The notes below the pieces were generated by a model that ran no database searches, was not told the DNA's origin, and saw only the letters and a program-made list of their open reading frames with translations. From contig CAXXMU010000001.1 of NCBI GenBank assembly GCA_963667785.2, forward strand, positions 192,001-256,000: 64,000 nt of DNA. The letters run 5' to 3'. This document shows, in pieces, positions 1 through 37,079 of this stretch. Both the position numbers and the translations under genes were made by a program. The number at the start of each line of letters is the position of its first letter. Position 1 is the first letter of the stretch. This DNA is from Alphaproteobacteria bacterium (GTDB lineage: Bacteria > Pseudomonadota > Alphaproteobacteria > UBA828).

Positions 1-44
1 GTGCCGGTGCGGCAGACGTCGATCCAGCCGTCGAGTGCGCTCAT
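1..44 (-). CDS. 5' end of a probable Mu-like head maturation protease (gpI-like), running out of the window
   Basis: Minus-strand ATG at 44 reads MSALDGWIDVCRTG(T), resembling the WI(E/D)xxRxGT N-terminus of Mu-like proteases; it sits behind the late-promoter palindrome. Only 14 codons are visible. Confidence 0.55.
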   Translation of the reverse strand, partial: MSALDGWIDVCRTG

Positions 45-101: not shown

Positions 102-165
102 TTTTGCCGCCCGGCATGCTCGAATCAGGCCCGCTGCTCCCGCCGGCGGGCTCCCTGAAGGGCCG

Positions 166-3564: not shown

Positions 3565-3565
3565 G

Positions 3566-4519: not shown

Positions 4520-4654
4520 TTCTTCCCCTCCATCTGTGATGTCGGATTCCCGATGGTAGGGGAGGCGCGGCCCGGCGTCATGCAGGCGCCGGGCCGCATC
4601 GCCCCGATCCCCCTCCCTGCTGGGGGGGGCAGTGAGTGACGCGGGGCGCGCCGC

Positions 4655-9970: not shown

Positions 9971-10071
9971 CGCGCCGCCGGGGAGCGCTCTGGGTGCTGC
10001 GCCAGCAATTCGTCTGGTGGCGCTGCGCGTGGCTCGCGCCGCGCCGGACCGTCGAGAGGAGGAGCCGATGA
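9967..10071 (+). CDS. 34-aa basic peptide
   Basis: ATGA overlaps at both ends fill the operon gap exactly. Confidence 0.45.
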   Translation: MTRRRGALWVLRQQFVWWRCAWLAPRRTVERRSR

Positions 10072-10610
10072 CCGACACCGTCGCGCTGGAGCGGCCGACC
10101 ATGGACGATATCTTTGCGCTCGCGCGCTCCTACGCGCGCGCCCGCGACGCCCTGGAGGCCGCCGGGGAGGAGATCAGGCAGTTACAGCGCCGGGCGGTCC
10201 GCGACCGCCTGCGCGGGCTGCGGAGCCGCGTGGCCGAGGTCGCGGCGGCCGATGACGCGCTGAGGGCGGCGATCAGGTCCAGCCCCGGCCTGTTCGTGCG
10301 GCCGCGCACGGTCGCGGTCGACGGCGTGAAGGTCGGCCTGCGCAAGCAGGTCGGCGCGCTGGCCGTGGGCGACGAGGCCGCCGCGATCGAGCTGCTGCGG
10401 AAGCGGCTGCCGGGGCTGGCGGACACGTTGATCGTCACGAAGGAGAGCCTCGATCGGAAGGGCCTCCGCAAGCTGCCGGCCGCCGACCTGGCGCGGATCG
10501 GCGTCACCATCGGCGACCCCACCGACGAGGTGGTGATCGCGGCGGCCGAGAGCGATATCGACAAGCTCGTCGACGCCCTGCTCGACGACAGCGTGGAGGA
10601 GGAGGCGTGA
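10068..10610 (+). CDS. Gam-like host-nuclease inhibitor
   Basis: Coiled-coil N-terminus, then FVRPRT...GVKVGLRK...LIVTKESLDR; usual Mu position. Confidence 0.7.
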   Translation: MTDTVALERPTMDDIFALARSYARARDALEAAGEEIRQLQRRAVRDRLRGLRSRVAEVAAADDALRAAIRSSPGLFVRPRTVAVDGVKVGLRKQVGALAVGDEAAAIELLRKRLPGLADTLIVTKESLDRKGLRKLPAADLARIGVTIGDPTDEVVIAAAESDIDKLVDALLDDSVEEEA

Positions 10611-11035
10611 AGTCGCGGCTCAGTAGGCTCCAGCATGCCGAGCTGCAGTTCCTCGCGGGTACCCACACCCGCGTCGGCATGCGCCCACGGCGCCAGGGGA
10701 TGGAGCGGCTGAAGAACCTGGGGCTCATCACTGAGCACGGCAGCGTGACGCTCCTCGGCATGATCGCACTGCATCTCGACGGCCGCCTGCCAGATGCGCG
10801 GATACAGCGCCTCCTCATCGCCCTGGCGGACGCCGACGTCGAGCGCTCCAACAGCTACCGACTGACCGGCGCGCGGGTGCGCGCGCCGGCGGCCGTCCTC
10901 GATCGCTTCGTGGACGCCGGGTTCGCGACCCAGAGGTGGCAGCGCGGCGCGATCCTCTGCCGCGCGACGGGTCTGTGCTGCGAACTCGCCGTCCGCCTCC
11001 GCCAACAGACGCTGCCCCCCCCTGTGGGGGCTTGA
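10607..11035 (+). CDS. Hypothetical phage protein
   Basis: GTGA-coupled ORF with GGAGG RBS. Confidence 0.6.
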   Translation: MKSRLSRLQHAELQFLAGTHTRVGMRPRRQGMERLKNLGLITEHGSVTLLGMIALHLDGRLPDARIQRLLIALADADVERSNSYRLTGARVRAPAAVLDRFVDAGFATQRWQRGAILCRATGLCCELAVRLRQQTLPPPVGA

Positions 11036-11050
11036 GCGGGAGGTGAGGCC

Positions 11051-11266
11051 GTGAAGCGCTGTCTGATCTGCGGCTGCACCGAGGAGTGGGCCTGCGTCGA
11101 CGACCACGGCGACGCCTGCGCCTGGTCGCAGTGCGATCCCCGCATCTGCAGCTTCTGCGACGAGGGCGTGCCCTGCCAGCATGGCGGCGCCTGGCCGCCG
11201 GTCCGCGCGGCCTTCGCCGGCGCGGGCGCCCAGGGCGTGGTGCGCCGGCCGGAGGCCGGGCAGTGA
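11051..11266 (+). CDS. Cys-rich zinc-finger-like phage protein
   Basis: CxxCGC...AC...C.W...CSFC. Confidence 0.7.
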   Translation: MKRCLICGCTEEWACVDDHGDACAWSQCDPRICSFCDEGVPCQHGGAWPPVRAAFAGAGAQGVVRRPEAGQ

Positions 11267-11473
11267 CGAACCTCGAGCTCCGCGTCGAGGACATCGTGAG
11301 GGGGGGGCATCCTCCCCACGGACCACGCTCACCGCGAGACGAACGACGGCACCTGCAGCCGCTGCCGCCGCGCGGTCCGCGAGGACGACGTGCCGCTGAT
11401 GCTCTGGACCGACGACGGCGACACGCTGTGGATCTACTGCGGCGACTGCTGCGCATGGGAGGGCGCGCGATGA
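11263..11473 (+). pseudogene. CxxC...CxxC small protein frameshifted at a G8 tract (11300-11307)
   Basis: Removing one G joins MTNLELRVEDIVRG to GILPTDH...CSRC...YCGDCCAWEGAR*, which ends in an ATGA overlap with the next gene. Confidence 0.6.
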
Positions 11474-11727
11474 AGTTCGACATCTGGGCGAGTCCGGAGG
11501 GTGAGACGCCGGACCCCGACGGCGGATTCGAGGAGCACGTGGACCGCTACACCACGCGGGAGGGCGCGCTCGCCAAGGCCCGCGCGCTGCTCAACGAGGG
11601 CCGCGCAGTCGGGATCGTCCCGGTGGCCGACGACGCGGACCCGCCGGGGGGGGGGGGCGAGGAGCTGAGCGACCCGCTGGATATCCCGCCGCTGCTGCAG
11701 CGTTGCACTGAGGGGGCGAGGCCGTGA
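11470..11727 (+). CDS. Hypothetical phage protein containing a G12 tract
   Basis: Coupled ORF starting MKFDIWASPEG. Confidence 0.6.
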   Translation: MKFDIWASPEGETPDPDGGFEEHVDRYTTREGALAKARALLNEGRAVGIVPVADDADPPGGGGEELSDPLDIPPLLQRCTEGARP

Positions 11728-12160
11728 CCGCACCGCTTCACCTCCTGCGCGCCTTCACGGGGTGGGGCAACGAGCGGCGCCAGCCGATCAGGACCGTCGA
11801 CGGGGCGGAAGCCTGGGTCCGTCACATCGCCGAGCTTGGCTTCGACCGCTTCTACACCTGGTCGAGCCGGACGCCCCGCCGCGCCGACGAATTGAGGGGC
11901 GGCTCCGTCTATTTCGTGGCGAAGCGCCGGGCGCTCTTCCGCATGCCCTTCTCCGAGGTCGAGCCGGACGGTGACGGCTGCGCGATCCGTATGCGGCCCG
12001 AACTGATCCGGGTGCGCCAGGACTACGTCGGCATGGTGCGCGGCCCGGCGCTACCTCCGCGACGCGGACGCCCGGCCCGACCTGCCCGCGATCGCCGGCC
12101 GCCGCCGGCGATGCACCGCCCGAGATGGCGGCCGAGCTGAAGGAGTTGGGCCTTGCCTGA
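11724..12160 (+). pseudogene. DUF1489-like protein with two apparent frameshifts (~12045, ~12100)
   Basis: PRR.DEL.GGSVYFV in frame 1; RYLRDADARPDL and PPEMAAELKELGLA* in other frames. Confidence 0.6.
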
Positions 12161-12836
12161 CCGCGCCCCCGACGAGCGCAAGCGCCTCATCCGCCAGGTG
12201 CACGCCGAGGCGCGCCGCCTCGGCATCGATACCGACGAGCGCCGGGCGCTGCAGGTCCGCGCCGTCGGCAAGGAGAGCTGCGCCGACATGTCCGCCTCGG
12301 AGCTCCGCAGCGTCGTCGCCGCCATGGGCGAGGGCCGGGATCGCCTGCCGGACCACCCCTCGGCGCGGAAGCTGCAGGCGCTCTGGATCAGCGGCTGGTG
12401 CCTCGGCGTGATCGAGGACCGCCGCGACAGCGCCCTCTGCGCCTGGCTGCGCCGCCAGGCCAAGGTCGACGCGGCGCGGTGGATCACGCCGGGCCGCGCG
12501 GCGAAGGCGGTCGACGCGCTCCAGCAGTGGCTCACGCGGGAGGCCGGCGTGGACTGGTCGCCCTATATCCTCGTCGGCCGCGACGGCGTGAATCGCGAGG
12601 TGCACCAGCCGCAGGCCCGCGTGCTGGAAGCGCAGTGGCGCCTGCTGCACAAGCTGGGCTGGGTGCGGAATCCCGACCTGAGCGCGCTGGCCTCCTACGC
12701 CACCCGGCACGGCCGCCTCGCGCATGCGGGCTCGCATACCGAGCTCCGCGACAAGGAGGCCGTCGCGCTGATGCAGGACCTCGGGACGCAGATCCGAGAG
12801 GCGAAGGGCGGCGATGCCGATCAGTCGCGAAGCTGA
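12153..12836 (+). CDS. GemA/gp16-like (DUF1018) regulator
   Basis: LIRQVH...LGID...GKESCADMS..EL; RKLQALW; position before mor. Confidence 0.8.
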   Translation: MPDRAPDERKRLIRQVHAEARRLGIDTDERRALQVRAVGKESCADMSASELRSVVAAMGEGRDRLPDHPSARKLQALWISGWCLGVIEDRRDSALCAWLRRQAKVDAARWITPGRAAKAVDALQQWLTREAGVDWSPYILVGRDGVNREVHQPQARVLEAQWRLLHKLGWVRNPDLSALASYATRHGRLAHAGSHTELRDKEAVALMQDLGTQIREAKGGDADQSRS

Positions 12837-13260
12837 GCGGGCCTATCCCGGCGGCTCTCTCCGCTCGCCGGAGTGGCTCGCGATCCGTCGCGCCATCCTC
12901 GGCCGGGCCGGCCGATTCTGCGAATGCCGGGGGGAATGCGGGATCGACCACCGTGACGAGCGGGCCGACGAGGCGCTCGCCTTCTCGCCGGCGATCGAGT
13001 TGGCGATCGAGCCGCAGCGCTGCTGGGCCATGCACGGCGATGCTCACCCCGTCACCGGCTCCCGCGTGGTGCTGACCATCGCCCACCTCGATCAGGATCC
13101 GGCGAACAATACGCCCGACAACCTCCGCGCCCTCTGCCAGCGGTGTCACAACCGCCTCGACGCGCCCCACAGGCGCGCACACGCGGCCGAGACGCGCAGG
13201 CGGCGCCTGGCGTGCGGAGACCTCTTCGACGGCCCCTACGACGCCCAGGGGGCGCCGTGA
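12814..13260 (+). CDS. HNH-like zinc-binding protein
   Basis: VVLTIAHLDQDPANN..DNLRALCQRCHN. Confidence 0.75.
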   Translation: MPISREAERAYPGGSLRSPEWLAIRRAILGRAGRFCECRGECGIDHRDERADEALAFSPAIELAIEPQRCWAMHGDAHPVTGSRVVLTIAHLDQDPANNTPDNLRALCQRCHNRLDAPHRRAHAAETRRRRLACGDLFDGPYDAQGAP

Positions 13261-13278
13261 GCGCGCCGGGGGGGGGCT

Positions 13279-13620
13279 GTGAGCGGTGAGCCGGCGCTGC
13301 CGGGGGTGCTGGCGGATATCGAGCGCCTGGCGGGGCGCGGAGCCGCAATCGACCTGGCCCTTCAGCACGGCGGCCGGGAGGTCTACTTCCCGGCGGAGAA
13401 GGCGATCGCCGGCGGGGACGACCATCCGCTGCTCCACGTGCTCGGCGCGGCCGCTGCGCTCGTGGTCTGCCGGCACGTGGGTGGGAACGCCATCTATGTG
13501 CCGAGAGCGCGCCGCGCCTGCGCGCTCGAGCTCGCGCGCCGGGGCAAGACGCCGGCCGAGATCGCCGGCCTCCTGAAGACGTCCATCTACACCGCGCGGC
13601 GCTATATCCGACGCTCCTGA
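13279..13620 (+). CDS. Mor/C-family late transcription activator
   Basis: GGREVYFP and GGNAIYVP repeats plus C-terminal HTH; last gene before the lysis block. Confidence 0.8.
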   Translation: MSGEPALPGVLADIERLAGRGAAIDLALQHGGREVYFPAEKAIAGGDDHPLLHVLGAAAALVVCRHVGGNAIYVPRARRACALELARRGKTPAEIAGLLKTSIYTARRYIRRS

Positions 13621-13628
13621 GCGACACC

Positions 13629-13677
13629 TTCACGGGACCATGGTCCCGTGAACATTCCTCGCGCGACTCCATACCAT
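13629..13677 (+). promoter_or_regulatory. Putative late (Plys-like) promoter: palindrome TTCACGGGACCATGGTCCCGTGAA plus -10 TACCAT
   Basis: Second copy of the 76-101 palindrome, 18 nt from GTGAAC to TACCAT (13672-13677). Confidence 0.72.
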
Positions 13678-13720
13678 CCCCCTCATCTGACAACAGCCCC
13701 CCCCCTGAGGAGGATACGAA

Positions 13721-14464
13721 ATGGGCTTTCTCAAGAGGTCGCCTGCCAGGCGACACGTTCTGGCGGCTGCGGCCGCCATCGCCATGGGCGCCGCGCTTCT
13801 CGCCGCCCCGCCGGCCTGGGCCGAGCTCGACGTCGACCACTTCGCACTGGAGTTCGATCGGGCGCTCGCTGAGAGTTCCGCGGCCTTCGATCTGGAGTAC
13901 GCCGATCATCCGATCGTCCTCGCCCACGCCGGACAGCTCTCGCCGAAGGACGACTGCCACAAGCACAAGGCCGCGGGCGAGCGCCACTGGCATCTCGCCG
14001 GGACCGACGATCGCGGCGGCGAGTGCGTCAAGCGCGATGGCGTCACGGTGAAGGTCGGTGCCGAGGCCGAGGTGCTGAAGCAGCGGCTTGCGGCGGCCGA
14101 GGCCGAGGCCATCAACGCCCGGCGCCAGGTCGAGGACCTGACGCGGCAGCGCAATGGCTATGCCGCCGAGGCCGACCGCTGGGAGCGCCGGGCGCTGGAA
14201 GCCGAGGCCCGGATCGACGAGGCGGAACGCGCGGCCATGCGCGCCGCATCGCTGGCGACGACGGCCCAGGCGGAAGCGGAAGCGTCCCGCACCATCGCGG
14301 AGGAGGCCGAGCGCCGCGCTCGGGGCATCGGACCGCGCGTCGACCTGCGGTGCCGCACGGCGGTGGAGAAGATCGTCCACGGCGACACCGGCTGGCTGAG
14401 CTCCTCCGTCTCGGTCGACGAGGAGGAGCGCATCGCGCTGTCCCGCGACTGCCTCGCCCCCTAG
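13721..14464 (+). CDS. Exported coiled-coil protein with a YHYH-like His/Cys motif
   Basis: RRHVL plus signal peptide; AHAGQLSPKDDCHKHKAAGERHWH; long coiled coil; GAGGAGG RBS. Confidence 0.7.
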   Translation: MGFLKRSPARRHVLAAAAAIAMGAALLAAPPAWAELDVDHFALEFDRALAESSAAFDLEYADHPIVLAHAGQLSPKDDCHKHKAAGERHWHLAGTDDRGGECVKRDGVTVKVGAEAEVLKQRLAAAEAEAINARRQVEDLTRQRNGYAAEADRWERRALEAEARIDEAERAAMRAASLATTAQAEAEASRTIAEEAERRARGIGPRVDLRCRTAVEKIVHGDTGWLSSSVSVDEEERIALSRDCLAP

Positions 14465-14474
14465 GAGCGCTCCC

Positions 14475-14906
14475 GTGCTCCATGCCCGCCTCGCGCGGGA
14501 TCGATCCGGCGACCAGGGCACTCTGGGTGTCCTGGTCGCCCGCGATCTCCCGCCGGTCCACATCATGGAGCCGCCCTGGCGGGACAACCGCCGCAACCGC
14601 TCCTGCATCCCGGCCGGCCTCTACGAGGTCGTGCCGCACATCTCGCCCAGATTCAAACGCTGCCTGCTGGTGACGAACGTGCCCGGCCGCAGCCACATCC
14701 TCTTTCACGCCGGCAACCTGGGCGGAGACTCCGAACGCGGCTGGCACACCCACACCGCAGGCTGCCTCCTGCCGGGACTGCGCCGGGGCCGCATCGAGGT
14801 CCGAGGCCGCATCCAGGAGGCCGTCGTCTCGTCGCGCTCCGCCTTTCGCCACCTCATGACCTGGGCCGCCGGCCGGCCCTTCACACTGGAGATCGTCGAT
14901 GCTTGA
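14475..14906 (+). CDS. DUF5675-like putative endolysin
   Basis: EPPW..N....SCIPAG.Y; VPGRSHILFHAGN...HTAGCLL. Confidence 0.75.
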   Translation: MLHARLARDRSGDQGTLGVLVARDLPPVHIMEPPWRDNRRNRSCIPAGLYEVVPHISPRFKRCLLVTNVPGRSHILFHAGNLGGDSERGWHTHTAGCLLPGLRRGRIEVRGRIQEAVVSSRSAFRHLMTWAAGRPFTLEIVDA

Positions 14907-15426
14907 CACGCTCCTCGATGTCGGTGCTTCCATCCTCGCCGGCGGCACCACCGGCCTCCTCGGCACCGCCGTCTCCGGTGTCATCGACTTCTTCCAGGGC
15001 CGCGCTGAGCACAAGCGCGAGCTGGAGCTCCGGCGCCTCGATATCGACCTGGCCAACGCCGAGGGCGCCTCGGCCGAGCGCGTGGCCGCGATAGAGGCCG
15101 AGGGAGAGCGCGATCGCGCCGAGCTTAGGGCGATGGAGGCCTCCTACCGGGAGGCGGGATCGCGGATCTCGCGCCCCGGCGACGGCTTCCTGCTGAAGCT
15201 GGTGGACTTCGTGCGCGGCATGACCCGGCCGGTGCTGACCTGGGGCCTGGTCGCCCTGGTGGGCGTCATCTACTTCACCCTCGGCGCCGAGTTCATAGAG
15301 CCGGGCAGCGTGAAGCCGCGCATCGTCGACACGGTGCTCTACCTCACCACCGCCGCCGTGCTTTGGTGGTTCGGCCAGCGCCAGATCGAGAAGCGGCGCG
15401 CCCAGGGCGTGCCGGGGGTGAAGTGA
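14899..15426 (+). CDS. Putative holin (3TM-type)
   Basis: Hydrophobic N-terminus, RPVLT plus two TM helices, WWFG.R tail; follows the lysin. Confidence 0.7.
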   Translation: MLDTLLDVGASILAGGTTGLLGTAVSGVIDFFQGRAEHKRELELRRLDIDLANAEGASAERVAAIEAEGERDRAELRAMEASYREAGSRISRPGDGFLLKLVDFVRGMTRPVLTWGLVALVGVIYFTLGAEFIEPGSVKPRIVDTVLYLTTAAVLWWFGQRQIEKRRAQGVPGVK

Positions 15427-15453
15427 GCGCCGCCGGGGGGGGGCTGATCCGGC

Positions 15454-15864
15454 ATGGCCATTCCTGACGGCGACGCCTGGCAGGCGTTCGCCAGCTTCGG
15501 GGGCGTGATCGTCTTCCTCGGCGCCGTCGTGGTCGCGCTCCGGCGCCTCGGCGTCATGGGCACGCGGCCCGCGCCGGCGCCCAAGCCGGCGGCCCAAACG
15601 ACAGCCCCGGCCTCCGCATCGGAGTCGGACCTCACCGATATCAAGGAGGGCATAGCCGACGTCAAGGAGCGCCTCGCGCGCGTGGAAACCAGGCTCGAAT
15701 CCCGCAGCGTCGACCACCTTTGGAAGGAACATCGCAAGGTGGAGACGATCGCCAACGAGAACCGCGCCGCCCTGGCCAAGCAGGAAGGGGTGCTGGAGGA
15801 GCTGCGCCCGCTCTTGCGATCACTCAACGAGTATCTCACCCGCGGGAAGGGGGGGGCTGAATGA
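15454..15864 (+). CDS. Membrane-anchored coiled-coil protein (Mu gp25-like position)
   Basis: Single N-terminal TM helix plus coiled coil. Confidence 0.6.
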   Translation: MAIPDGDAWQAFASFGGVIVFLGAVVVALRRLGVMGTRPAPAPKPAAQTTAPASASESDLTDIKEGIADVKERLARVETRLESRSVDHLWKEHRKVETIANENRAALAKQEGVLEELRPLLRSLNEYLTRGKGGAE

Positions 15865-16163
15865 CGTCGTGGGCGCAATGGGAAGAGGAGCGCTGCCGGC
15901 TCGACTGCCTGCGCCTGCTCGACGAGCTCCCCGCCTATTCGGCGAACCACCGCACGCTCGCCGCCGCGTTGCAAACCCGCGGCCACAACCCCTCCGCCGA
16001 CGCCCTGGCCGACACCCTCAACTGGCTGGCCGGGCGGGGCCTCCTGGAGACCCGCGAGGAGGCCGGCTACGTCGTGGCGCGGCTGACCGATCGCGGCGCC
16101 GACGTCGCGGCCGGGCGTGAGACGGTGCCCGGCGTCGCACGCCCCGCACCGGGCGATGACTGA
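15861..16163 (+). CDS. Mu gp26-like protein
   Basis: RL..LRLL...Y.AN...LNWL...GL...ARLT.RGADVA.GR..VPGVARP. Confidence 0.8.
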   Translation: MTSWAQWEEERCRLDCLRLLDELPAYSANHRTLAAALQTRGHNPSADALADTLNWLAGRGLLETREEAGYVVARLTDRGADVAAGRETVPGVARPAPGDD

Positions 16164-16722
16164 GGCCGGCAAGGTGACGCGCGGCCGCATGGGCCGCATC
16201 GATCAGCTCCGCGAGGATCTGCGCGACGCGATTCACAAGTCCCTGCGCGGCGGCGTGCCGCAGAAGACGATCCTCCAGGAGGTGAACGCGGCGCTGGCGG
16301 AGAGCGGCGACAAGCCGATCAGCGCTGCGAGCCTCAACCGCTACGTCAACCGCCCGGCGATCCGGGCGCTGGCCGAGCGCGCGCGCATCGCCTGCGAGAT
16401 CGGCGACGCGGTCGCCCGCTCGGCCGAGGAGGGCGGTGGCACCAACCTCGATCGGGGGCTGGTGCAGGCCGGCCAGACCCTCGCCATGGAGGCGCTGGCG
16501 GAGATCGACTGGGACGGGTTCGAGCCCGAGGACCGCGTGAAGATGGTCGCCAACTTCGGTCTGGCCGTTCGACGCTTCGCCGCGTCCGCCGCCGTCACCG
16601 ACGCGCGCGAGCGGGCGATCCGCGCTGAGGTCGCTGAGGTCGCGGCGAAGGAGGCGCGCAGGCAGGGGCTGTCGGCCGAGGGCGCGGCGAAGATCCGGGC
16701 CAAGGTCGAGGGGGCGGAATGA
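16156..16722 (+). CDS. Small terminase, Mu gp27/DUF3486-like
   Basis: IDQL...ISAASLNRY and GLS.E...IR tail; immediately upstream of the terminase. Confidence 0.8.
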   Translation: MTEAGKVTRGRMGRIDQLREDLRDAIHKSLRGGVPQKTILQEVNAALAESGDKPISAASLNRYVNRPAIRALAERARIACEIGDAVARSAEEGGGTNLDRGLVQAGQTLAMEALAEIDWDGFEPEDRVKMVANFGLAVRRFAASAAVTDARERAIRAEVAEVAAKEARRQGLSAEGAAKIRAKVEGAE

Positions 16723-18167
16723 CGCGGTCGCTCCTGCCCTATCAGCGACGCTGGGTCGCCGATGGCACGCAGCTTAAGATCGTGGAGAAGTCGCGTCGCA
16801 TCGGGCTGAGTTGGGCCGAGGCCTACGACGCGGTGATGCACGCGGCCGAGGGACGCGGCAACGTCATCTATCAGTCCTACGACAAGGAGATGACGCGCGG
16901 CTTCATCGACGACTGCGCCGAGTGGGCCGAGCACCTGGAGTTCGAGGCCGGCGCGATCGGCGAGAGCGTCATAGATGACGGGGATTCGGGGGCCGTTCAG
17001 GTCTTCCGCATCCGGCTCGCGTCGGGGAAGACCATCACGTCGATGACCAGCGCACCGCGTGCGCTCAGGTCGAAGGGGCGGCCGGGAGACCGCGCGATCA
17101 TCGACGAGGCCGCCTTCGTCGACGACCTGGATGAGGTGCTGAAGGCGGCGCTCGCCTTTCTCACCTGGGGCGGCCGCGTCCACGTGATCTCGACCCACAA
17201 CGGCGAGGCCTCGCCCTTCAACCTGCTTCTGCGCGACGTGCGCGACGGCAGGCAGCCGGGATCGGTCCATACCATCACCTTCCGCCAGGCGATCGACGAG
17301 GGTCTCGGCCGGCGGATCTTCGAGGTGACCGGCCGCGAGTGGACGCCGGAGGCCGAGGCGGAGTGGGAAGCCGGGATCCGGCGCACCTACGGCCACCGCG
17401 GCAAGGAGGAGCTCGACTGCGTGCCCTCCGCCGGCTCCGGCGCCTGGCTCACCTGGGAGATGATCCGGGCCTGCGAGGACAAGACCGGCGAGGCCGGAGA
17501 GGCGGAGCACTTCGCCGGGAACATCACCTATATCGGCGTCGACGTCGCCCGCCGGCGCGACCTGTGGGTCGCCGCCGTGCTGGAGCGCGTGGGCGACGTG
17601 CTCTGGCTGCGCGAGCTCGTCGTGCGGCAGGGAATCTCCTTCAGCGAGCAGCGGGCCATCGTCCGCAACCTGGTCGTCCACTATCGTCCCACGCGGATCG
17701 CCGTCGACCAGACCGGCATGGGCGAGGCCGTGGTCGAGCAGCTGCAGGAGGACCACGGCACGAGCCGGGTCGAAGGCGTGCTGATGACCGGCCCGCGCCG
17801 CCTCGACGTGGCCACGGCGCTGCGCGAGGCGGTCGAGGACAAGCGACTGCGGATCCCGGCCGACGACGATCTGCGCCGCGATCTCCACTCGATCCGCACC
17901 GAGGCCGGCCCGACCGGCCAGCCACGCCTGCTGGCCGACACGGCGGAGACCGACGGCCACGCCGACCGCTTCTGGTCTATGGCCCTGGCCTGCGCCGCCG
18001 CGGCGCAGGGCACCGGCCCGATCGAGGGCGCGATCGCCGGCCCGAGCGTGGCGAGCGGCCTCTTCGCGCAGATCGACGCCGCCGGCCGGCCGGTAGACCG
18101 GCAGTCGATCGACTACGACCGCGGCATCGTCTATGGCATATCCTCCCGCATGCGGGGCTTCAGCTGA
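16719..18167 (+). CDS. Terminase large subunit (Mu gp28-like)
   Basis: LLPYQ, EKSRRIGLSW, IIDEAAF, GVDVAR, HADRFW. Confidence 0.93.
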   Translation: MTRSLLPYQRRWVADGTQLKIVEKSRRIGLSWAEAYDAVMHAAEGRGNVIYQSYDKEMTRGFIDDCAEWAEHLEFEAGAIGESVIDDGDSGAVQVFRIRLASGKTITSMTSAPRALRSKGRPGDRAIIDEAAFVDDLDEVLKAALAFLTWGGRVHVISTHNGEASPFNLLLRDVRDGRQPGSVHTITFRQAIDEGLGRRIFEVTGREWTPEAEAEWEAGIRRTYGHRGKEELDCVPSAGSGAWLTWEMIRACEDKTGEAGEAEHFAGNITYIGVDVARRRDLWVAAVLERVGDVLWLRELVVRQGISFSEQRAIVRNLVVHYRPTRIAVDQTGMGEAVVEQLQEDHGTSRVEGVLMTGPRRLDVATALREAVEDKRLRIPADDDLRRDLHSIRTEAGPTGQPRLLADTAETDGHADRFWSMALACAAAAQGTGPIEGAIAGPSVASGLFAQIDAAGRPVDRQSIDYDRGIVYGISSRMRGFS

Positions 18168-19696: not shown

Positions 19697-20890
19697 ATGC
19701 CCGAGCCGGAGATCCTCGCCGTCCCGCCCAGGGAGGCGGTCGCCCACTTCAGGGCCAAGGGCTATCACGTCGGCTACAGCTGGCTCGACACGGCCGCCGG
19801 CGAGCACACGCGCTCCTTCACCGTTGCCAAGGCCATGCGCCTCGACGTCCTGGAGGCGATCCGCGGCGAGGTCGACCGGGCGATCGCGGACGGCATCACC
19901 TTCGAGGACTTCGAGAAGGCGCTCGAACCGCGCCTGAGGGAGATGGGGTGGTGGGGGCGCGGCCAGATGGTCGACCCGCTCACCGGCGAGCTCCGCAACG
20001 TGCAGCTCGGCTCGCGGCACCGGCTGCGCACGATCTTCGACACCAACCTCCGCATGTCCTACGCCAAGGGGCGCTGGGAAATGATCGAGCGCGACGCCGC
20101 GGCCGCGCCGTATCTCATGTACGACGCCGTCAACGACGCGCTGACGAGGCCCGAGCACCTGGCCTGGGACGGCACCGTGCTGCGCTGGGACGATCCGTGG
20201 TGGCGCTCCCACTACCCGCCGAACGGGTGGTTCTGCCGGTGCCGGGTGATCCAGATGTCGGAGGAGGACCTGGAGGAGTTCGGCATCGAGCCCTCGGGCG
20301 GGCCGCCTGCCGAATCACTCAGGACGCGGCCGTGGACCAACAAACGCACCGGCGAAACGCACCAGGTGCCGATCGGGATCGATCCGGGCTTCCAGGACAA
20401 CGTGGGGCTCGTGGGCGGCGGCCGGGACACGGCGGACCGTCTGATCGGGAAGATGGATGCCGCGTCGCCCGATATGGCGCGGGCGGTCGTGGGCTCGCCC
20501 TGGCGCACGGCGCTGTTCCACCGCCACCTGGCGGGGCGGGACGAGGGAGACTGGCCCGTGGCTGCAGCACCGGCTGCGGTTCTGGCCGCCGCCGGTGGGC
20601 AGTCGCAGACGGTGCGGCTTTCGGGCGCGTCTGCGGCGAAGCAGGCCGAGCGGCACGGCGACCTCTCCCCGGAGGACTATGCCCGCGTCCAGGCGATCAT
20701 CGATCAGGGCGAGTTCTTCGAGGCCGGCGGCCACCATGTGATGGGGTTCCTGGAGATGGACGGCCGCCCCTGGCGCGCGGTGGTGAAGGCGACGCGCGAC
20801 GGCGCGGAGACCTACGTCGTCAGCTTCCACAAGGCTCAGCCATACGACCTCGAGGCCGCGCGGCGGCACCTGCCGACGATCTCCCGCTGA
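19697..20890 (+). CDS. MuF (gp30) head morphogenesis protein with a C-terminal nuclease-like (PBECR-like) extension
   Basis: SFTVAK, RLRTIFDTN, TRPEH, PPNGWFCRC; extra ~130 aa with K..RH.DL..EDY and RAVVK.T......VVSFHK. Confidence 0.88.
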   Translation: MPEPEILAVPPREAVAHFRAKGYHVGYSWLDTAAGEHTRSFTVAKAMRLDVLEAIRGEVDRAIADGITFEDFEKALEPRLREMGWWGRGQMVDPLTGELRNVQLGSRHRLRTIFDTNLRMSYAKGRWEMIERDAAAAPYLMYDAVNDALTRPEHLAWDGTVLRWDDPWWRSHYPPNGWFCRCRVIQMSEEDLEEFGIEPSGGPPAESLRTRPWTNKRTGETHQVPIGIDPGFQDNVGLVGGGRDTADRLIGKMDAASPDMARAVVGSPWRTALFHRHLAGRDEGDWPVAAAPAAVLAAAGGQSQTVRLSGASAAKQAERHGDLSPEDYARVQAIIDQGEFFEAGGHHVMGFLEMDGRPWRAVVKATRDGAETYVVSFHKAQPYDLEAARRHLPTISR

Positions 20891-20896
20891 GAGGGG

Positions 20897-20970
20897 TGGA
20901 TGGCGCCGGGCGGGCCACAACCCCCGCGCTCGCCCGAAGGCATGAGAGTATTGCGAATGCTTCCGGCGCC
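20897..20970 (-). ncRNA. Putative 74-nt tRNA-like small RNA convergent on muF
   Basis: Promoter TCGACG(21000-21005)-N17-TATAGT(20977-20982); 8-bp closing stem 20963-70/20902-09; cUUCGg arm; 5-bp T-like arm; ends AUCCA. Confidence 0.55.
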
Positions 20971-21029
20971 GGCCCCACTATAGCCGCGTCGTCGGCGGCC
21001 GTCGACTGCGGCGGCAGGCGCTGCACCCC

Positions 21030-21279
21030 TGGTTGATTCACACCCCGTCGCGGGCGACGATTTTCCGGCCGATTCACGCCCTGTGAACGGCTCGATTATT
21101 TGTCGTTTCTGGCCAGTCCACAGCCCCTGCACCGCCCGATTCCCAGAGACTTATGCGCGGTGCCTCTCAGCGCTTTGCGCCTTCGAGGACGTCGCACGCC
21201 GCGGTCACCGCGCGATTCCACGAGCGTTCACGAGATTCCGGACGATTTCGCGATTCCGTCCGACTTCTGCTTCCCGACA
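21030..21279. repeat. Putative right end of the prophage with transposase-binding repeats
   Basis: GATTCAC x2; roughly 10-bp periodic CG(A/C)GATTCC-like units 21211-21258; terminal ACA at 21277-21279. Confidence 0.55.
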
Positions 21280-22320: not shown

Positions 22321-22436
22321 GACTCCCCCACCTCACCCTGGCCCTCTCCGCCCCCAGGGGCGGAGAGGGAAAGCAGCCGGCGCCGTCACGTTCCCCCTCC
22401 GCCTTTGGGGGAGGGGGATAGGGGGAGGTGGGAGTC
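22321..22436. repeat. Alphaproteobacterial REP/RIME-like palindromic element
   Basis: Terminal IR GACTCCC..ACCTC/GAGGTGGGAGTC enclosing CCCTCTCCGCCCC-CA-GGGGCGGAGAGGG and a second hairpin. Confidence 0.7.
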
Positions 22437-22575
22437 GTTCAAGCCGTGGTGACCTCGTGTGGTCGGACAATGCTATAGCGGCCACTTCCTCCATCGCGCC
22501 GCGGGGCGCGATATGGCACGCGAACCGTGCCGCTGCTAAGCTGGCGGCCGCGCGCAACGAGACGGGACGAGGGCG

Positions 22576-25874: not shown

Positions 25875-26561
25875 ATGCCGCTCGATGACGAGGTCCGCAA
25901 GGCGCTCGACACCATCTTCTCCGGCGACGCCGGGCTCTACCGGACGCGCGGCTGGAACCAGCGCTCCGGCTTCGGCACGCGGCCGGCGCTTCTCAACATC
26001 GACCTCGCCAACGCCTGGACCCGCCCGGGCCACCGCTTCTCCTGCGAGGACATGGACGAGCGGATCATCCCCGGCGTGCAGCGCCTGCTCGCAGCCGCCC
26101 GGGCCAAGCGGGTGCCGATCGTCTACACCACCACCGCCTTCTGCAGCCGCTTCGACATGGGCGCCTTCCCGCTCAAGAAACCCTTCGAGGATCTCATGCT
26201 GGGGACGGAAGCGACCGAGATCGACGACCGCGTCGCGCCGGAAGAGGGCGTCGACACGCTGATCGTCAAGAAGCGGCCGAGCGCCTTCGCCGGCACCCAT
26301 CTCGGCGGCATCCTGCGCGCCGGCGGCATCGACACGCTGATCTGCACCGGCGTCACCATGGCGAGCTGCGTCCGGCACACGGTGGAGGATGCGCTTGGCG
26401 AGGGCTTCCGCACCGTGCTGGTGCGCGAGTGCGTCGGCGACCGCGTGCCCGCCGCGATCGAGTGGAACCTGTTCGACCTCGACATGAAGTATTGCGACGT
26501 CGAGCCGCTTGAGCGGGTGTTGGCCTACCTCGACGATCTGGAGCCCTTCGTCGACGGCTAG
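25875..26561 (+). CDS. Isochorismatase-family cysteine amidohydrolase
   Basis: NIDL, KKRPSAF and ASCV catalytic D-K-C. Confidence 0.88.
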   Translation: MPLDDEVRKALDTIFSGDAGLYRTRGWNQRSGFGTRPALLNIDLANAWTRPGHRFSCEDMDERIIPGVQRLLAAARAKRVPIVYTTTAFCSRFDMGAFPLKKPFEDLMLGTEATEIDDRVAPEEGVDTLIVKKRPSAFAGTHLGGILRAGGIDTLICTGVTMASCVRHTVEDALGEGFRTVLVRECVGDRVPAAIEWNLFDLDMKYCDVEPLERVLAYLDDLEPFVDG

Positions 26562-27238
26562 CCTTCCCCGCCCGTCAGCGGGACGAAGGCGACCGGCAGC
26601 ACGCGGCGTACCTCGGTGGTGCCGTCGGCGCGCTTGCCGATGCGCTGCAGGCTCTGGGTCCTCGCGGCCCGGCCCACGGGGATGACGAGGCGTCCGCCGG
26701 GCCCGAGCTGTGCCACCAGCGCGGGCGGCACCGAGGGCGCGGCGGCGGTGACGATGATGCCGTCGAAGGGGGCCCGCTCGGGCCAGCCGGCATGGCCGTC
26801 GCCGGTGCGTATGGCGGCGTCCGCATGCCCCAGTGCCGCGAGGCGTGCCGCCGCGGCCTCCGCCAGCGGCGCCACGATCTCGAGCGAGTGGACCGCAGCA
26901 CCGAGCGCGCAGAGGATCGCGGTCTGGTAGCCGCAGCCGGTGCCGACCTCGAGGATGCGCGCGCCCGGCTCGATGTCGAGCAGCTCGGTCATCAGCGCGA
27001 CGATGAAGGGCTGGGAGATGGTCTGCCTGTGGCCGATGGGGAGCGGCCGGTTCTCGTAGGCGAGCGCCCTATCCGCCTCGGCCACGAAGGCCTCGCGGGG
27101 GACGCTGCGCATGGCGTCCAGCACCGCCGCCGCGATCTCCGGCCGCCCGGTGAGCGCGCCGGTCTCCCGCGCATCGCGCGCGATCGCCTCCAGCATCGTG
27201 TCTGCGGTCGCGTGCCGTTCGGCCGGGCGGCGGAACAT
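26558..27238 (-). CDS. pcm: Protein-L-isoaspartate O-methyltransferase (copy 1)
   Basis: QTISQP, LEVGTGCGY, APFD.I.VTAA, FVPL. Confidence 0.9.
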   Translation of the reverse strand: MFRRPAERHATADTMLEAIARDARETGALTGRPEIAAAVLDAMRSVPREAFVAEADRALAYENRPLPIGHRQTISQPFIVALMTELLDIEPGARILEVGTGCGYQTAILCALGAAVHSLEIVAPLAEAAAARLAALGHADAAIRTGDGHAGWPERAPFDGIIVTAAAPSVPPALVAQLGPGGRLVIPVGRAARTQSLQRIGKRADGTTEVRRVLPVAFVPLTGGEG

Positions 27239-27366
27239 CGTCCGGGTGCGCTCCTCGCGGCGAGGATGGCACAGTCGCGCCCGGCCCGCCATGCGCGGGC
27301 GCGCCCGCCGTGCTAAACCCCCGGCGCAGACGGCGCGCTGCCCGGTTCCGACGAGCGACGGCGAGC

Positions 27367-34175: not shown

Positions 34176-34835
34176 TCAGTCGATCTCGTCTTCCGGCACG
34201 ATCCAGGGCTCCTGCAGGGCCGCGTCGCGCCACTCGATGAAGGCCGGCAGGCTAAGCACGGCGCGGCTGTAGGCGTCGCAGGTCTCGTCGAGGTCGACGC
34301 CGTAGGTCTCGAGCCGGGTGACCACCGGCGCGTACATGGCGTCGGCCGCGCCGAAGGCGCCGAACAGGAAGTCGCCGCCGGCGCCCCAGCGGGCCCGGCA
34401 CTCGCGCCAGATCGCGCAGATGCGGGCGATGTCGTCGTCGACCCCCGGCCCGCGGCCCTTCCCCTTGAGATCGAGGCGGCGCAGGTTCATGGGCATGTGG
34501 TTGCGAAGGGCGCCGAAGCCCGCGTGCATCTCGTGGGCGACGGCGCGGGCCGCGGCGCGCGCGTCGCGATCCTCGGGCCAGAGGCCGGCGTCCGGGAACA
34601 GCTCGTTTGCGTACTCGATGATCGCGAGCGTCTCCCACACGGTGCGCTCGCCGTGCAGCAGCACAGGCACGCGCCCGGAGGGCGAGACGGCGGCGATCGC
34701 CTCCTTCCAGTTCTCGTCGAAGAGCAGGAGCAGGCGCTCGTCGAAGGGGATTCCGGCGTGGCGCAGCGCAAGCCAGGGCCTGAGCGACCAGGACGAGTAG
34801 TTTTTGTTGCCGATGACCAGGGTGAAGTCGCTCAT
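34176..34835 (-). CDS. Glutathione S-transferase family protein
   Basis: NKNYSSWSLRPW, GRVPVL, ADAMYAPV. Confidence 0.92.
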   Translation of the reverse strand: MSDFTLVIGNKNYSSWSLRPWLALRHAGIPFDERLLLLFDENWKEAIAAVSPSGRVPVLLHGERTVWETLAIIEYANELFPDAGLWPEDRDARAAARAVAHEMHAGFGALRNHMPMNLRRLDLKGKGRGPGVDDDIARICAIWRECRARWGAGGDFLFGAFGAADAMYAPVVTRLETYGVDLDETCDAYSRAVLSLPAFIEWRDAALQEPWIVPEDEID

Positions 34836-34957
34836 GGCGATCCGCGCGCACGCTCCGCATTGCTTTGTGCGGCCGGACTATAGCGCCGCCCTCCGCACCG
34901 GCAATGCGCTCGCGCGGATCGCGCCGGGTCGGGCCAGCGGCGTGCCGCCTGCGCCGT

Positions 34958-35016
34958 GTGCACCGCACCATGGTGCGGTGCACGGCGCGGAGCGCCTGCG
35001 CCAGACTCGCGCCATG
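34958..35016 (+). promoter_or_regulatory. Orphan phage-type late promoter: palindrome GTGCACCGCACCATGGTGCGGTGCAC, 18 nt, CAGACT, 6 nt, ATG
   Basis: 26-bp perfect palindrome, 20/26 identical to 76-101 with symmetric substitutions; same spacing and same -10 hexamer. Confidence 0.6.
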
Positions 35017-35084
35017 CGGTGCGTGAGAGAGCGGGGCAGTGAAGACGGGGCGACGGGAGACGCCCGGCGCCACCTCGCGGTCGC

Positions 35085-35350
35085 GGGATTCATCCCGGAA
35101 ACCCGCCCGGATATCCCGGCGGAATCCCACCTTCTTCGGAAAATGTCCCGCGCTGAATCCCTCGTCATCCCGGCGAATCCCGCATGCCCCCCCCCTTTCT
35201 GGCGAATCCCACTTTCGCCCCCCGTCCGGGTCTGCCGCGCGCACATCGGCGCCGAGCCGCCGTTCGCCCCTCCTTTGTGCCGCTTCGTGCCGCTTTGTCC
35301 CGGGACATCCCGCATAGAAAACGAGAGGGGGGTGTGCCACTTTGCGCCCC
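35085..35350. repeat. Arrays of (A/G)TCCC and 10-bp tandem units resembling transposable-phage ends
   Basis: ATCCC at 35092, 35113, 35124, 35157, 35167, 35177, 35206, 35307; tandem TTTGTGCCGC/TTCGTGCCGC/TTTGTCCCGG/GACATCCCGC at 35274-35313. Confidence 0.6.
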
Positions 35351-35391
35351 CGCCGCCTGGCCGCCCGGCGCGCCGGCAGCGCGGCAGGGGG

Positions 35392-35805
35392 CTAGCGGGT
35401 GGCGTCGATGGTCTGAACGTGGCCGCCCGCGGCGTAGGAGAGGATGGCGAAATCGGCGGTCAGCAGCGGTGCGCCGCATTGGCGGGCGGTGGCGACGAGG
35501 AGGCGGTCGGCGGGATCGGCCCGCAGCGCCCCCGGCAGCCGCGCGCTGTCGGTGGCGATGGCGGGGTCGATGGGCAGCAGCCTGATGCCCGGCAGAGCGA
35601 GCGCCGCCCGAATCCAGGCGCCGGCCTCCTGTGCCAGGCGAAGGCGCCCGCTCTCGGCCAGCAGCGCGATCTCCCACGGCGTGATGGCGGAAATACCAAT
35701 GTCGTCCGTCTCTCCCGCCGCGGTGATCGCCGCGCGCGCCTCGGCGCCGAGCCGCCGTTCGTCGTTGACGGCCCAGACCAGCACGTGGGTGTCCAGAACG
35801 ATCAC
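35392..35805 (-). CDS. vapC: VapC-family PIN toxin
   Basis: VLDTHVLVW, SAITPWEI, DPADR, LLTAD. Confidence 0.92.
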   Translation of the reverse strand: MIVLDTHVLVWAVNDERRLGAEARAAITAAGETDDIGISAITPWEIALLAESGRLRLAQEAGAWIRAALALPGIRLLPIDPAIATDSARLPGALRADPADRLLVATARQCGAPLLTADFAILSYAAGGHVQTIDATR

Positions 35806-36044
35806 GGCGCGGAGCCCCGGTCGGCGGGACCTGTGGCGGGCAGGAAGGGATCGTCGTAGGCCAGCACCGATCCCTCCATGGCGCCGATGATGGATCGAAC
35901 CGCGCGCTCCGGTCGCACCGGCGACAACAGCGCGACCGGACGGCCGCGGTTGGTGATCGTCACGACCTCGCCGTCCTCGCTCATGTCATTGATAATACGG
36001 AGACATTTCGCCTGAAACTCGGCCGCCGCGATGGTCTTGCCCAT
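35802..36044 (-). CDS. Phd/YefM-family antitoxin
   Basis: AAEF.AKCL...ITNRGRPVA; overlaps the vapC start. Confidence 0.9.
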   Translation of the reverse strand: MGKTIAAAEFQAKCLRIINDMSEDGEVVTITNRGRPVALLSPVRPERAVRSIIGAMEGSVLAYDDPFLPATGPADRGSAP

Positions 36045-36229
36045 GGCCTTCGCCCGCGCATAAATATGTATAGATTATATGTACGTATAATTGGTGGGGC
36101 CGTCAAGGGGTAATCGGACCATCAAGGGGCAGGGGGCAAGGGGAGGGTGCGCGACGGCGGCCGTTCGCGTCGCGGGCCATTCCGGGGCTGCGACGATGCC
36201 GACGATGCCGTGCGCCCCGGCGTGGCAGC

Positions 36230-36934
36230 TCAGCCGTCGTCGTCCGCAGCGTCGGCGCCGCTCACGAGCTGGGAGAAGCGCACCGGCAGGATCTCCTCGG
36301 TCTCGAAGCGCCCGCCCTCGTCCTTGGTGACCAGCAGCAGGCGCTGATCGTCCTCGAGTCCTGCTGGGATCACCATGCGCCCGCCGGCCTTCAACTGCTG
36401 CAGCAGCGCCGGCGGAAGGAGATCGGGTGCCGCGGTCGCGATGATGCGGTCGAAGGGCGCATGCTCGGGCCAGCCCAGGCTGCCGTCGCCGATGCGGAAG
36501 CGCACGTTGCCGTAGCCCTGCTCGGCGAGCCGGCGGCGCCCGCTCTGCGCCAGCTCCTCGATCACCTCCACGGTGAACACCTCGGCCGCGAGCTCGGCCA
36601 GCAGCGCCGCCTGATAGCCGAGGCCCGTGCCGATCTCGAGCACCCGGTCCTCCGCGCCGATCTCCAGCAGGTCGGTCATCAGCGCGACGATGAAGGGCTG
36701 CGAGATCGTCTTGCCGCAGCCGATCGGCAGCGGCGAATCGAGATAGGCGTAGAGCGCCATCTCCACCGGCACGAAGGCGTGGCGCGGCACCCGCCCGATC
36801 GCGTCCATCACCGGCCCGGCGATCTCGGCGCGGCCGGTCCTGACGCCGACATGGTCGGCATGCAGCGCCACCTGCTCGACCATGGTCCGGCGCAGGATCG
36901 CGAATTGGTCTTCGTTGGAGTTCGCCGCCGTCAT
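36230..36934 (-). CDS. pcm: Protein-L-isoaspartate O-methyltransferase (copy 2)
   Basis: KTISQP, LEIGTGLGY, APFDRI. Confidence 0.88.
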   Translation of the reverse strand: MTAANSNEDQFAILRRTMVEQVALHADHVGVRTGRAEIAGPVMDAIGRVPRHAFVPVEMALYAYLDSPLPIGCGKTISQPFIVALMTDLLEIGAEDRVLEIGTGLGYQAALLAELAAEVFTVEVIEELAQSGRRRLAEQGYGNVRFRIGDGSLGWPEHAPFDRIIATAAPDLLPPALLQQLKAGGRMVIPAGLEDDQRLLLVTKDEGGRFETEEILPVRFSQLVSGADAADDDG

Positions 36935-37079
36935 GGTCCGCCACCGCGCCTGCGCCCGCGTCCGCACTAAGCTGCTATAACTATCGCATTAGCGGTGGAG
37001 CCGCGAGCCTTGCAGGCGCGCCCTGCCGCCGCGTCTCCGGCGGCTGCCGCCCGCAGCAGGCCACCCACGGGAGTTGTGC

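Follow-up and report, generated by a model that had tools for sequence, protein, structure and literature searches.

A phage-type late promoter module without a gene in alphaproteobacterial host DNA beside a vapBC pair

Anatomy of the site C locus

The subject of this work was a short non-coding element in the genome of an Alphaproteobacteria bacterium (GTDB lineage UBA828; assembly GCA_963667785.2, contig CAXXMU010000001.1). The analysed stretch, called the window below, covered 64,000 nucleotides (nt) of the forward strand of that contig (positions 192,001 to 256,000) and carried a Mu-like prophage followed by host genes. In the host DNA, the 556-bp interval between gst (34176-34835, minus strand) and vapC had no convincing gene. 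It contained a perfect 26-bp palindrome which, together with a spacer and a hexamer, had the layout of a phage late promoter. We refer to this module as site C, and to its two counterparts in the resident prophage as sites A and B. An earlier reading of the same DNA from its letters (the first-pass annotation) had described the place as an orphan copy of the prophage late promoter with repeats resembling phage ends, aimed antisense at a vapBC toxin-antitoxin pair. The features of the locus were the following, where L005 to L009 are loci in other genomes that are described in the next section.

34877-34904, minus strand: sigma-70-like promoter of gst (TTGCCG, 16 nt, TATAGT), host DNA 54 bp left of the palindrome
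34946-34955 and 34993-35002: perfect 10-bp direct repeat CGCCTGCGCC that brackets the palindrome
34958-34983, plus strand: site C palindrome GTGCACCGCACCATGGTGCGGTGCAC, self-complementary throughout (26 of 26 positions), where a Mor/C-type activator dimer presumably binds
34984-35001, plus strand: G+C-rich spacer of 18 nt, conserved in length and not in sequence
35002-35007, plus strand: -10-like hexamer CAGACT with A at position 2 and T at position 6, without a -35 hexamer
35014-35048, plus strand: start of transcription as predicted (ATG 35014) with the first transcribed bases, which align with L009 and L008 to about +35
35085-35215, plus strand: C-rich block of roughly helically phased (A/G)TCCC, with GAATCCC four times direct and once inverted
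35187-35195, plus strand: run of nine C (C9)
35234-35266, plus strand: 33-bp duplicate of vapC, identical at 31 of 33 positions to the 5' coding part of that gene (35729-35761; E 2e-8 to 4e-8)
35273-35312, plus strand: repeats CTTTGTGCCG / CTTCGTGCCG / CTTTGTCCCG with a 10-bp period, similar in architecture to the GGGCCACYTT arrays behind L005 and L006
35312-35352, minus strand: imperfect G+C hairpin followed by UCUCGUUUUCU, a possible vapBC terminator, not called by a consensus terminator scan
35392-35805, minus strand: vapC (PIN toxin, Pfam 1.1e-17), convergent with site C
35802-36044, minus strand: Phd-family antitoxin gene, convergent with site C

The centre of the palindrome lay 43.5 nt from the A of ATG 35014, and this ATG followed CAGACT after 6 nt. 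Since its A stood 7 nt past the hexamer, transcription was expected to start at this codon. With the start placed there, the module had a dyad-symmetric activator site near -43.5 that overlapped the -35 region, and a recognisable -10 without a -35. A sigma-70 scan of 34700-36300 called no two-hexamer promoter on the plus strand. Judged from its letters and with the predicted start, the geometry of site C is that of a Mor/C-type, -35-less promoter. One report on the Mu middle promoter describes the Mor dimer as binding a dyad centred at -43.5 (PMC4390567), and another describes the Mu late promoters as having a -10 and no typical -35 hexamers (PMC2582627). Thus, site C shared with the Mor and C promoters of Mu both the dyad activator site over the -35 region, centred about 43.5 nt upstream, and the -10 without a -35. 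It differed in the size of the operator, namely a 26-bp palindrome here versus the 16-bp element with two 5-bp repeats that is stated for Mor in the Mu literature. It also did not precede phage late genes, no gene being present ahead of the convergent vapC.

A chance origin of this layout was excluded. The consensus palindrome of the first-pass annotation, searched with up to three mismatches, occurred at three places in the window compared with none in 100 shuffles (0.00 expected). No degenerate palindromes with up to five mismatches were found in the window and in all the loci besides the ten modules treated below. A direct repeat as long as CGCCTGCGCC appeared in only 4 of 500 shuffles. Flanking repeats of this type were considered as insertion scars and rejected since they were not general: a bracketing 10-bp direct repeat was present in only 2 of the 10 modules.

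The DNA behind the promoter did not encode a recognisable product. The frame that opened at ATG 35014 had a G+C content at third codon positions (GC3) of 0.76 compared with about 0.9 in the genes of the window, and Pfam and PHROG scans of the three frames behind site C gave no match, which agreed with the first-pass judgement that this frame was not protein-like. When 12 phage and toxin-antitoxin proteins were compared by low-stringency tblastn with five orphan regions (site C and the four geneless host loci L005, L006, L008 and L009), everything except the vapC duplicate was noise. An Rfam search of 34700-36300 (E up to 5) gave best scores of 14.9-20.1 bits against gathering scores of 40-168, and these matches were of the microRNA type and mostly fell on the palindrome. 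Folding of the transcripts predicted for site C, L005 and L006 gave structures no more stable than those of shuffles (z of +0.57, +0.17 and -0.74, respectively).

The repeat blocks between the promoter and vapC were a local anomaly, as had been proposed, and formed the densest (A/G)TCCC-type cluster of the window. Namely, ATCCC or GGGAT was present 132 times in the 64 kb and nine times in one 300-bp stretch here, while the best stretch elsewhere had three. Ten (A/G)TCCC motifs occupied 35092-35307 at spacings of 21, 11, 21, 12, 10, 10, 29, 91 and 10 nt, and their phasing had a Rayleigh p of 0.003 at 10.7 bp, the best of nine periods tried. The region 35085-35330 was among the most C-rich stretches of the window (C 41%, G 25%). 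The C-rich block also added five GANTC sites to a sixth one (GACTC, from 35004) that overlapped the hexamer CAGACT, the window average being one site per 556 bp. The C9 run mentioned in the first-pass annotation was confirmed at 35187-35195. The window had ten G or C runs of at least eight bases, nine of which were located in the prophage; the tenth was the C9 run at site C, and the other ~42 kb of host DNA had none. Elsewhere, there were four such runs in the prophage remnant L007, one in the phage locus L004, and none in the phage locus L003 and the four host-only loci. Like the low GC3 of vapBC (see below), this distribution was in favour of a phage origin for more than the promoter itself.

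The proposed likeness of these repeats to the prophage terminus did not hold. The comparison of 35040-35400 with 20891-21200 scored 20 and 24 on the two strands, while shuffles had a mean of 21-22 and a maximum of 31, and terminal transposase-binding repeats like those of the resident phage end were not seen at site C. The sole feature shared with the prophage end region was one rare 8-mer, CGGAAAAT, present at 35137 and 21060. A possible ACA end at 35243-35245 had to be abandoned because these bases were inside the duplicate derived from vapC. This 33-bp duplicate, which sat in non-coding DNA 126 bp past the vapC stop, was the only similarity found between the element and the rest of the window, and it may be filler DNA that marks where an old repair or deletion took place. 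Searches of 34940-35391 against phage and plasmid DNA collections gave only short chance matches with E of 0.01 or worse.

The vapBC genes had a GC3 of 0.78-0.79 compared with 0.92-0.94 in their neighbours. Because of this difference, the interval from gst to pcm, the gene that follows vapBC, looked acquired. No convincing inverted repeats were found around vapBC or the site C element. Upstream of the antitoxin gene, the A/T-rich segment 36060-36150 carried two copies of TCAAGGGG 22 bp apart as well as CAAGGGG, and one of the copies provided a TTGAC -35-like element on the vapBC strand. This segment was probably the promoter and operator of vapBC. The window also had two protein-L-isoaspartate O-methyltransferase genes 9 kb apart (26558-27292 and 36230-36967; Pfam 2.5e-60 and 2.1e-54), one of them being located directly beside vapBC.

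Related modules in the prophage and in other genomes

The resident prophage had two modules of the same kind, the second of which was absent from the list of the first-pass annotation.

76-101, minus strand: site A, consisting of the palindrome, 18 nt, CAGACT, 7 nt and ATG at 44..42
13279-13620, plus strand: open reading frame (ORF) of a Mor-like late activator with the recognition helix TSIYTARRY (PHROG 836 'late transcriptional activator', 2.5e-15)
13628-13653, plus strand: site B, 8 nt past the Mor-like ORF

Site A opened a leaderless I-like (protease/scaffold) ORF, MSALDGWIDVCRTG..., that ran leftwards off the window edge. The palindrome of site B had one mismatch, at its first base, and was followed by 18 nt, TACCAT, a C9 run, a leader with the Shine-Dalgarno sequence GAGGAGG, and ATG 13721. 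As with Plys and PI of Mu, the phage copies preceded lysis and head (I) genes, and the Mor-family gene directly upstream of the lysis promoter was a further likeness to Mu. By this analogy, site B is the promoter of the lysis operon of the prophage and the counterpart of the Mu lysis promoter, while site A is the counterpart of PI. There were also differences: Mu has two activators, whereas the window encoded one; several starts here were leaderless; and site C was geneless and located about 12-14 kb outside the prophage.

The palindromes of sites C and A were identical at 20 of 26 positions, as the first-pass annotation had said, and those of sites C and B at 19 of 26. It was also true that the six differences between C and A were symmetric, but this added no evidence since it is automatic for two perfect palindromes. 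The layout that had been called the same was shared in the 18-nt spacer and in CAGACT but not in the distance to the ATG, which was 7 nt at site A and 6 nt at site C.

We scanned 185,579 species genomes, a collection that did not include the source genome, with an 18-base core pattern. By a rough estimate, about nine chance matches were expected for an 18-base pattern in 596 Gb of equal base composition. The scan gave nine loci, seven of which belonged to Rhodospirillales-like metagenome-assembled genomes (MAGs) with 67-71% G+C. We treated the other two, L001 (Chryseobacterium) and L002 (Streptomyces), as matches by chance: their palindromes were asymmetric, no xAxxxT was present at 18 nt, and their taxa were unrelated. 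In all seven MAG loci, the palindrome was followed by a spacer of 17-18 nt and an xAxxxT hexamer. The loci were as follows.

L003, phage site: I-like gene under its control, sharing its N-terminus with the site A ORF; cement and capsid genes follow
L004, phage site: homologue of the window prophage (dam 68%, terminase 66% and MuF 62% identical)
L007, phage site: prophage remnant with GemA, a Mor 55% identical to that of the window, a repressor-like gene and three lysis-region genes; host genes adjoin
L005, orphan: dehydrogenase gene, module, 510 bp, groES-groEL
L006, orphan: alcohol dehydrogenase stop 12 bp before the palindrome; metallo-beta-lactamase (MBL)-rhodanese gene starts 326 bp after it
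L009, orphan: end of a fumarylacetoacetate-hydrolase-family gene 20 bp ahead of the palindrome, and an amidase gene beginning 250 bp past it
L008, orphan: module directed into the 3' end of rnhA, 45 nt past the hexamer

In all, ten modules (sites A, B and C and the seven loci) were aligned. The core positions were invariant in all ten and each had the xAxxxT hexamer 17-18 nt from the palindrome; the spacer was 18 nt long in nine of them, while 17 nt fitted L006 better. The concern that the palindrome was a high-copy host repeat could be dismissed. It was present three times in the window, twice in the prophage, and at seven related loci in the species collection, three of which preceded homologous phage late genes.

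In the phage site L004, the palindrome lay between a Mu-like I protein gene and dam, as at site A, and the I gene was started by the module. In L007, an ATG 6 nt after the hexamer CATGAT opened a DUF5675 gene whose product was 78% identical to that of window 14475-14906, and the distance from palindrome to ATG was the same as at site C (43.5 nt), compared with 44.5-45.5 nt at site A and in L004. Because the modules of L007 and L004 opened phage genes in this manner, an ATG at the module position marks genuine leaderless starts in this phage group.

The remaining loci (L005, L006, L008 and L009) were amid host genes. Searches with 18 probe proteins from the window, extending up to 10 kb on each side, detected no phage genes near these four. 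Thus, half of the ten modules were orphans, site C included, and the four others came from three related MAGs. L005 shared with site C both CAGACT and the ATG after 6 nt. L009 was alignable with site C over 76 bp at 75% identity and with L008 over 87 bp at 71% identity.

The palindrome sequences pointed to the source of the orphans. L005, L006, L007 and L009 had the asymmetric core CACCGGACCATGGTGCGGTG in common, and L008 was one base off. At site C, the promoter-proximal half was as in CACCGGACCATGGTGCGGTG, and the distal half was altered to match the proximal one. The site C palindrome agreed with that of L005 at 25 of 26 positions and with the lysis promoter of the phage in L007 at 24 of 26, but with the resident sites only at 19-20 of 26. 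The core shared with L007 argues for common descent of the orphans with the phage promoter rather than convergence, and on these sequence comparisons the orphans are descendants of an L007-type lysis promoter, not of the resident phage sites. Therefore, the description of site C as an orphan copy of the prophage late promoter was right in that a phage-type late promoter stood in host DNA, while the resident prophage was not its source.

A parallel division was found among the activators. The recognition helix TSIYTARRY was present in the Mor-like protein of the window and in three relatives at 70-73% identity, whereas LSPSAARRY was present in five of the six lower-identity relatives (46-53%) that were fetched and also in the Mor of L007. 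This suggests two activator clades with matching operator variants, the palindrome type of site C appearing to go with the LSPSAARRY clade. For an unstudied group of Mu-like phages of Alphaproteobacteria, the window documents an operator, a fixed 18-nt spacing, leaderless late genes and two activator clades.

Two kinds of short repeats were also observed near these loci. A dispersed repeat of 106-117 bp with an internal hairpin, 86-92% identical between different MAGs and the window, was present in the window at 22325-22439 (about 1.2 kb past the prophage end), in L008 at 42-158 (27 nt from the orphan), and twice within the prophage remnant of L007 (7044-7149 and 7930-8033); it was probably a small mobile repeat. 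GGGAT/ATCCC clusters occurred upstream of the palindromes of two phage sites as well, namely GGAATCCCTCCCTCATCC in L003 (4925-4975), and GGGAT, 9 nt and ATCCC in L004 (about 10085-10110, between the palindrome and dam). These clusters may be common intergenic repeats.

Origin and possible role of the geneless modules

On balance, the most likely reading, somewhat more probable than not, was that site C is a solo Mor/C-type late promoter module dating from a former insertion, that of an L007-like transposable phage or of one of its derivatives. Since the palindrome, the spacing and the hexamer were intact, a cognate activator could fire site C, and the module is probably still activatable by a cognate Mor. 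An activator dimer would bind the 26-bp palindrome overlapping the -35 region and recruit the host RNA polymerase to the weak -10 CAGACT. Transcription would then start at or next to ATG 35014 and run rightwards, and the resulting non-coding, unstructured and C-rich/G-poor transcript would probably be stopped by Rho near the 3' end of vapC. Because such an untranslated transcript would be a good Rho substrate, it was doubtful that antisense transcription would reach far into vapBC. The about 400 bp of phage-flavoured non-coding DNA (the C9 run, the phased repeats and the 33-bp filler) would form, together with the low-GC3 vapBC genes, a small acquired islet extending from gst to pcm, and this islet may be the remainder of the former insertion, either a transposable phage or something derived from one. 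Nothing pointed to control of the toxin genes by site C. Should site C be no more than a relic, its value would lie mainly in annotation, and it should not be taken as a sign that the prophage regulates vapBC.

Site C resembled other prophage remnants in being phage-type sequence in host DNA without a phage, and L007 could be viewed as an intermediate state. The 33-bp filler, whose source gene is located 500 bp away, also suggests an old repair junction. In contrast to them, site C was unusually clean and compact, kept all the promoter parts, and was a geneless module that recurred at four loci. Late promoters of satellites, such as P4 with P2, respond to the activator of a helper phage. Similar to these, site C was a promoter outside the phage genome with an activator site, and it would fire only when a late activator was made; it differed from them in being geneless, in not being a recognisable satellite, and in belonging with another activator family.

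Several observations weighed against a plain relic. First, five of the ten modules were clean orphans with a left edge 12-54 bp from host features, and only L007 was a partial prophage; after random decay, gene fragments should be more frequent. Second, the palindrome of site C was perfect, and the core was identical in four loci although their spacers were about half diverged; such an intact core could mean selection for function. Third, L005 and L006, which were from one MAG, shared the promoter module and a 3' array but not the interior, and simple decay does not explain this. The activator side of the model had its own difficulties. No second Mor-like gene, that is, no activator of the matching clade, was present in the window. 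The resident Mor-like ORF had a Pfam Mor score of 23.6 bits, below the cut-off of 24.9, and matched Mu Mor in the PDB (1rr7) weakly in sequence (E 0.14 and 0.25). Its fold search, made with a confident model, gave nothing significant, Mor 1rr7 being fourth with E 0.31 and a TM-score of about 0.2; the solved Mor is an intertwined dimer. The assignment of 13279-13620 to the Mor family rests on profile matches. Other results on this ORF were as follows. A search found 27 proteins including its own, and 17 of the 26 relatives carried PF08765. Tblastn against 50,697 phage records gave no match, and structure models reached a predicted local distance difference test score of 54 from the single sequence and 88 from an alignment.

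It was possible, though rather unlikely, that the orphans were instead non-autonomous mini-elements, in which the promoter module and the phased 3' repeats are copied to new sites, for instance by a Mu-like transposase, and the repeats are protein-binding sites (for the transposase, target immunity or packaging). This would account best for L005 and L006, where near-identical arrays lay 115-190 bp downstream of the module in the same orientation, 94-95% identical over 65-71 bp. Each array was made of GGGCCACYTT four to five times, GGCCGGARTA twice and an A-tract, and only these two were present in the 36.6 kb of that MAG that were examined. A comparable array of 10-bp units was present in the window (35273-35312), the array of L005 was flanked by a 37-nt inverted repeat (81%; 10058-10094 and 10386-10422), and the left edges of the modules were always near the palindrome. 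On the other hand, the window copy, L006 and L009 had no terminal inverted repeats, and there was no consistent target-site duplication. The interiors were unrelated even within one genome (L005 and L006), and L008, which was from the same MAG as these two, had the promoter module without an array. Moreover, the repeat units differed between genomes and bore no likeness to the resident prophage end, the copy number was low, and part of the 3' block of the window was readable as the vapBC terminator. The same balance was evident in a comparison with miniature inverted-repeat transposable elements (MITEs). Like MITEs, the orphans were short, non-coding and present in several intergenic copies per genome, and two copies in one MAG shared both end modules; unlike MITEs, the window copy had no terminal inverted repeats or target duplications, the interiors were unrelated and the copies few. 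As a separate observation, L005 had a perfect 14-bp inverted repeat just before groES (10473-10509), which we take to be of the CIRCE type.

Another proposal, also fairly unlikely in our estimation, was that the orphans are dispersed outposts of Mor activators in Rhodospirillales chromosomes. According to it, the operator and the -10 would be under selection and would couple host loci (vapBC, groES-groEL, the amidase gene, the MBL-rhodanese gene and rnhA) to the phage late phase, while the arrays would dock a second phage protein. If so, the modules would be either triggers of host eavesdropping or abortive infection, or promoters planted by the phage. The late activators of temperate phages are usually taken to act on the phage's own genes only, and among the publications that our literature searches listed, none reported Mor-type promoters of the orphan kind or this palindrome. 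The presence of intact geneless promoters in host DNA would mean either that prophage decay regularly leaves working switches or that hosts or phages tie chromosomal loci to the late phase.

The first-pass annotation had raised a more specific version, in which site C is a host sensor: the phage late activator fires an antisense transcript into vapC-vapB, the antitoxin supply falls, and the freed PIN toxin leads to abortive infection. The convergent geometry was real. The predicted start was 378 nt from the vapC stop, no intrinsic terminator was called on the plus strand, all the promoter parts were intact with a perfect palindrome, and the orphans combined a conserved core with diverged spacers. 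However, none of the four other orphans adjoined a toxin-antitoxin pair (groES-groEL, the MBL-rhodanese gene, the amidase gene and the 3' end of rnhA were there instead), and no vapB or vapC matches were found in the scanned loci. In addition, the palindrome type fitted not the Mor clade of the resident phage but another one, and the untranslated C-rich transcript would likely be a Rho substrate before or at vapC. We considered this sensor quite improbable.

It was very unlikely that the palindrome was an operator of a host transcription factor which had been borrowed by phages, with the host copies being ordinary host promoters. Five of the ten sites were indeed in host DNA, and three of those five (L005, L006 and L009) had a codirectional host gene downstream of them. 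Yet Mor was the only regulator repeatedly linked to the palindrome, its gene abutting site B and being present in the L007 remnant as well; the host copies either lay 250-510 nt ahead of the start codon that followed or ran antisense to a gene, positions uncommon among host promoters; and the family was rare, with seven loci in the species collection.

Finally, we gave hardly any credence to a genuine product of the promoter, either a small protein translated from a leaderless gene or a small RNA with a defined structure: an ATG did coincide with the predicted start, as it does where L007, L004 and site A open true leaderless genes, and the site C and L006 frames both began with MRCV (in different codons), but the ATG was missing in L009 and L008, the peptides were unrelated and differed in length (21 codons, 57 codons, or open), and the low GC3, the lack of protein family matches, the Rfam scores far from gathering levels and the unremarkable folds all spoke against a product.

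Organisation of the resident prophage

The genes of the prophage were assigned by Pfam and PHROG scans. Besides the Mor-like ORF, they included the following.

289-1110: D12-class adenine methyltransferase (dam-like)
2716-3672, minus strand: S24 repressor
4636-7176: MuA-like transposase
about 7.2-8.15 kb: AAA+ B-like protein
8646-9530: GcrA-like ORF (Pfam 2.2e-10)
12153-12836: GemA
12814-13260: HNH nuclease
after the Mor-like ORF: lysis-region genes, including DUF5675 at 14475-14906
16117-16722: gp27 (small terminase-like)
16719-18167: large terminase
up to 19684: portal
19697-20890: MuF

The left end of the prophage was beyond the window. Its probable right end, past MuF (21030-21125), had two copies of GATTCAC 36 bp apart, an inverted TTCAC/GTGAA pair and A/T-rich stretches. 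The host genes after the prophage were a cyclase gene, an amidase gene, a urease operon, gst and others. The order of the prophage genes was unlike that of Mu, the I-like head gene running leftwards from site A, away from dam, repressor, transposase, Mor, lysis, terminase, portal and MuF. L004 had the same layout as the window prophage but without a transposase between the repressor-like gene and the terminase.

The G or C runs of the prophage (8-12 bases, spanning 4622-15856) were mostly located a few bases before start codons. Namely, a G8 run preceded the transposase gene, a G9 run preceded Mor, and G9 and G8 runs preceded 15454 and 15861; a C12 run was just inside the GcrA-like ORF. These runs may be ribosome-binding stretches or slippage-prone tracts.

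On the other flank of site A (window 76-140), TCGAAT, directed towards the dam-like gene, was found at a distance of 18 nt from the palindrome, and L004 had TCAAAT at the corresponding place (10000-10060). A single palindrome may therefore serve two divergent promoters at site A. Lastly, CAGACT together with the next C made a GANTC site at sites A and C (window 51 and 35004) and in L005, and site B had such a site just before its hexamer (13665). GANTC is the methylation target of CcrM. The prophage encoded both a GcrA-like protein and a D12 adenine methyltransferase, and its late transcription may perhaps be methylation-sensitive.

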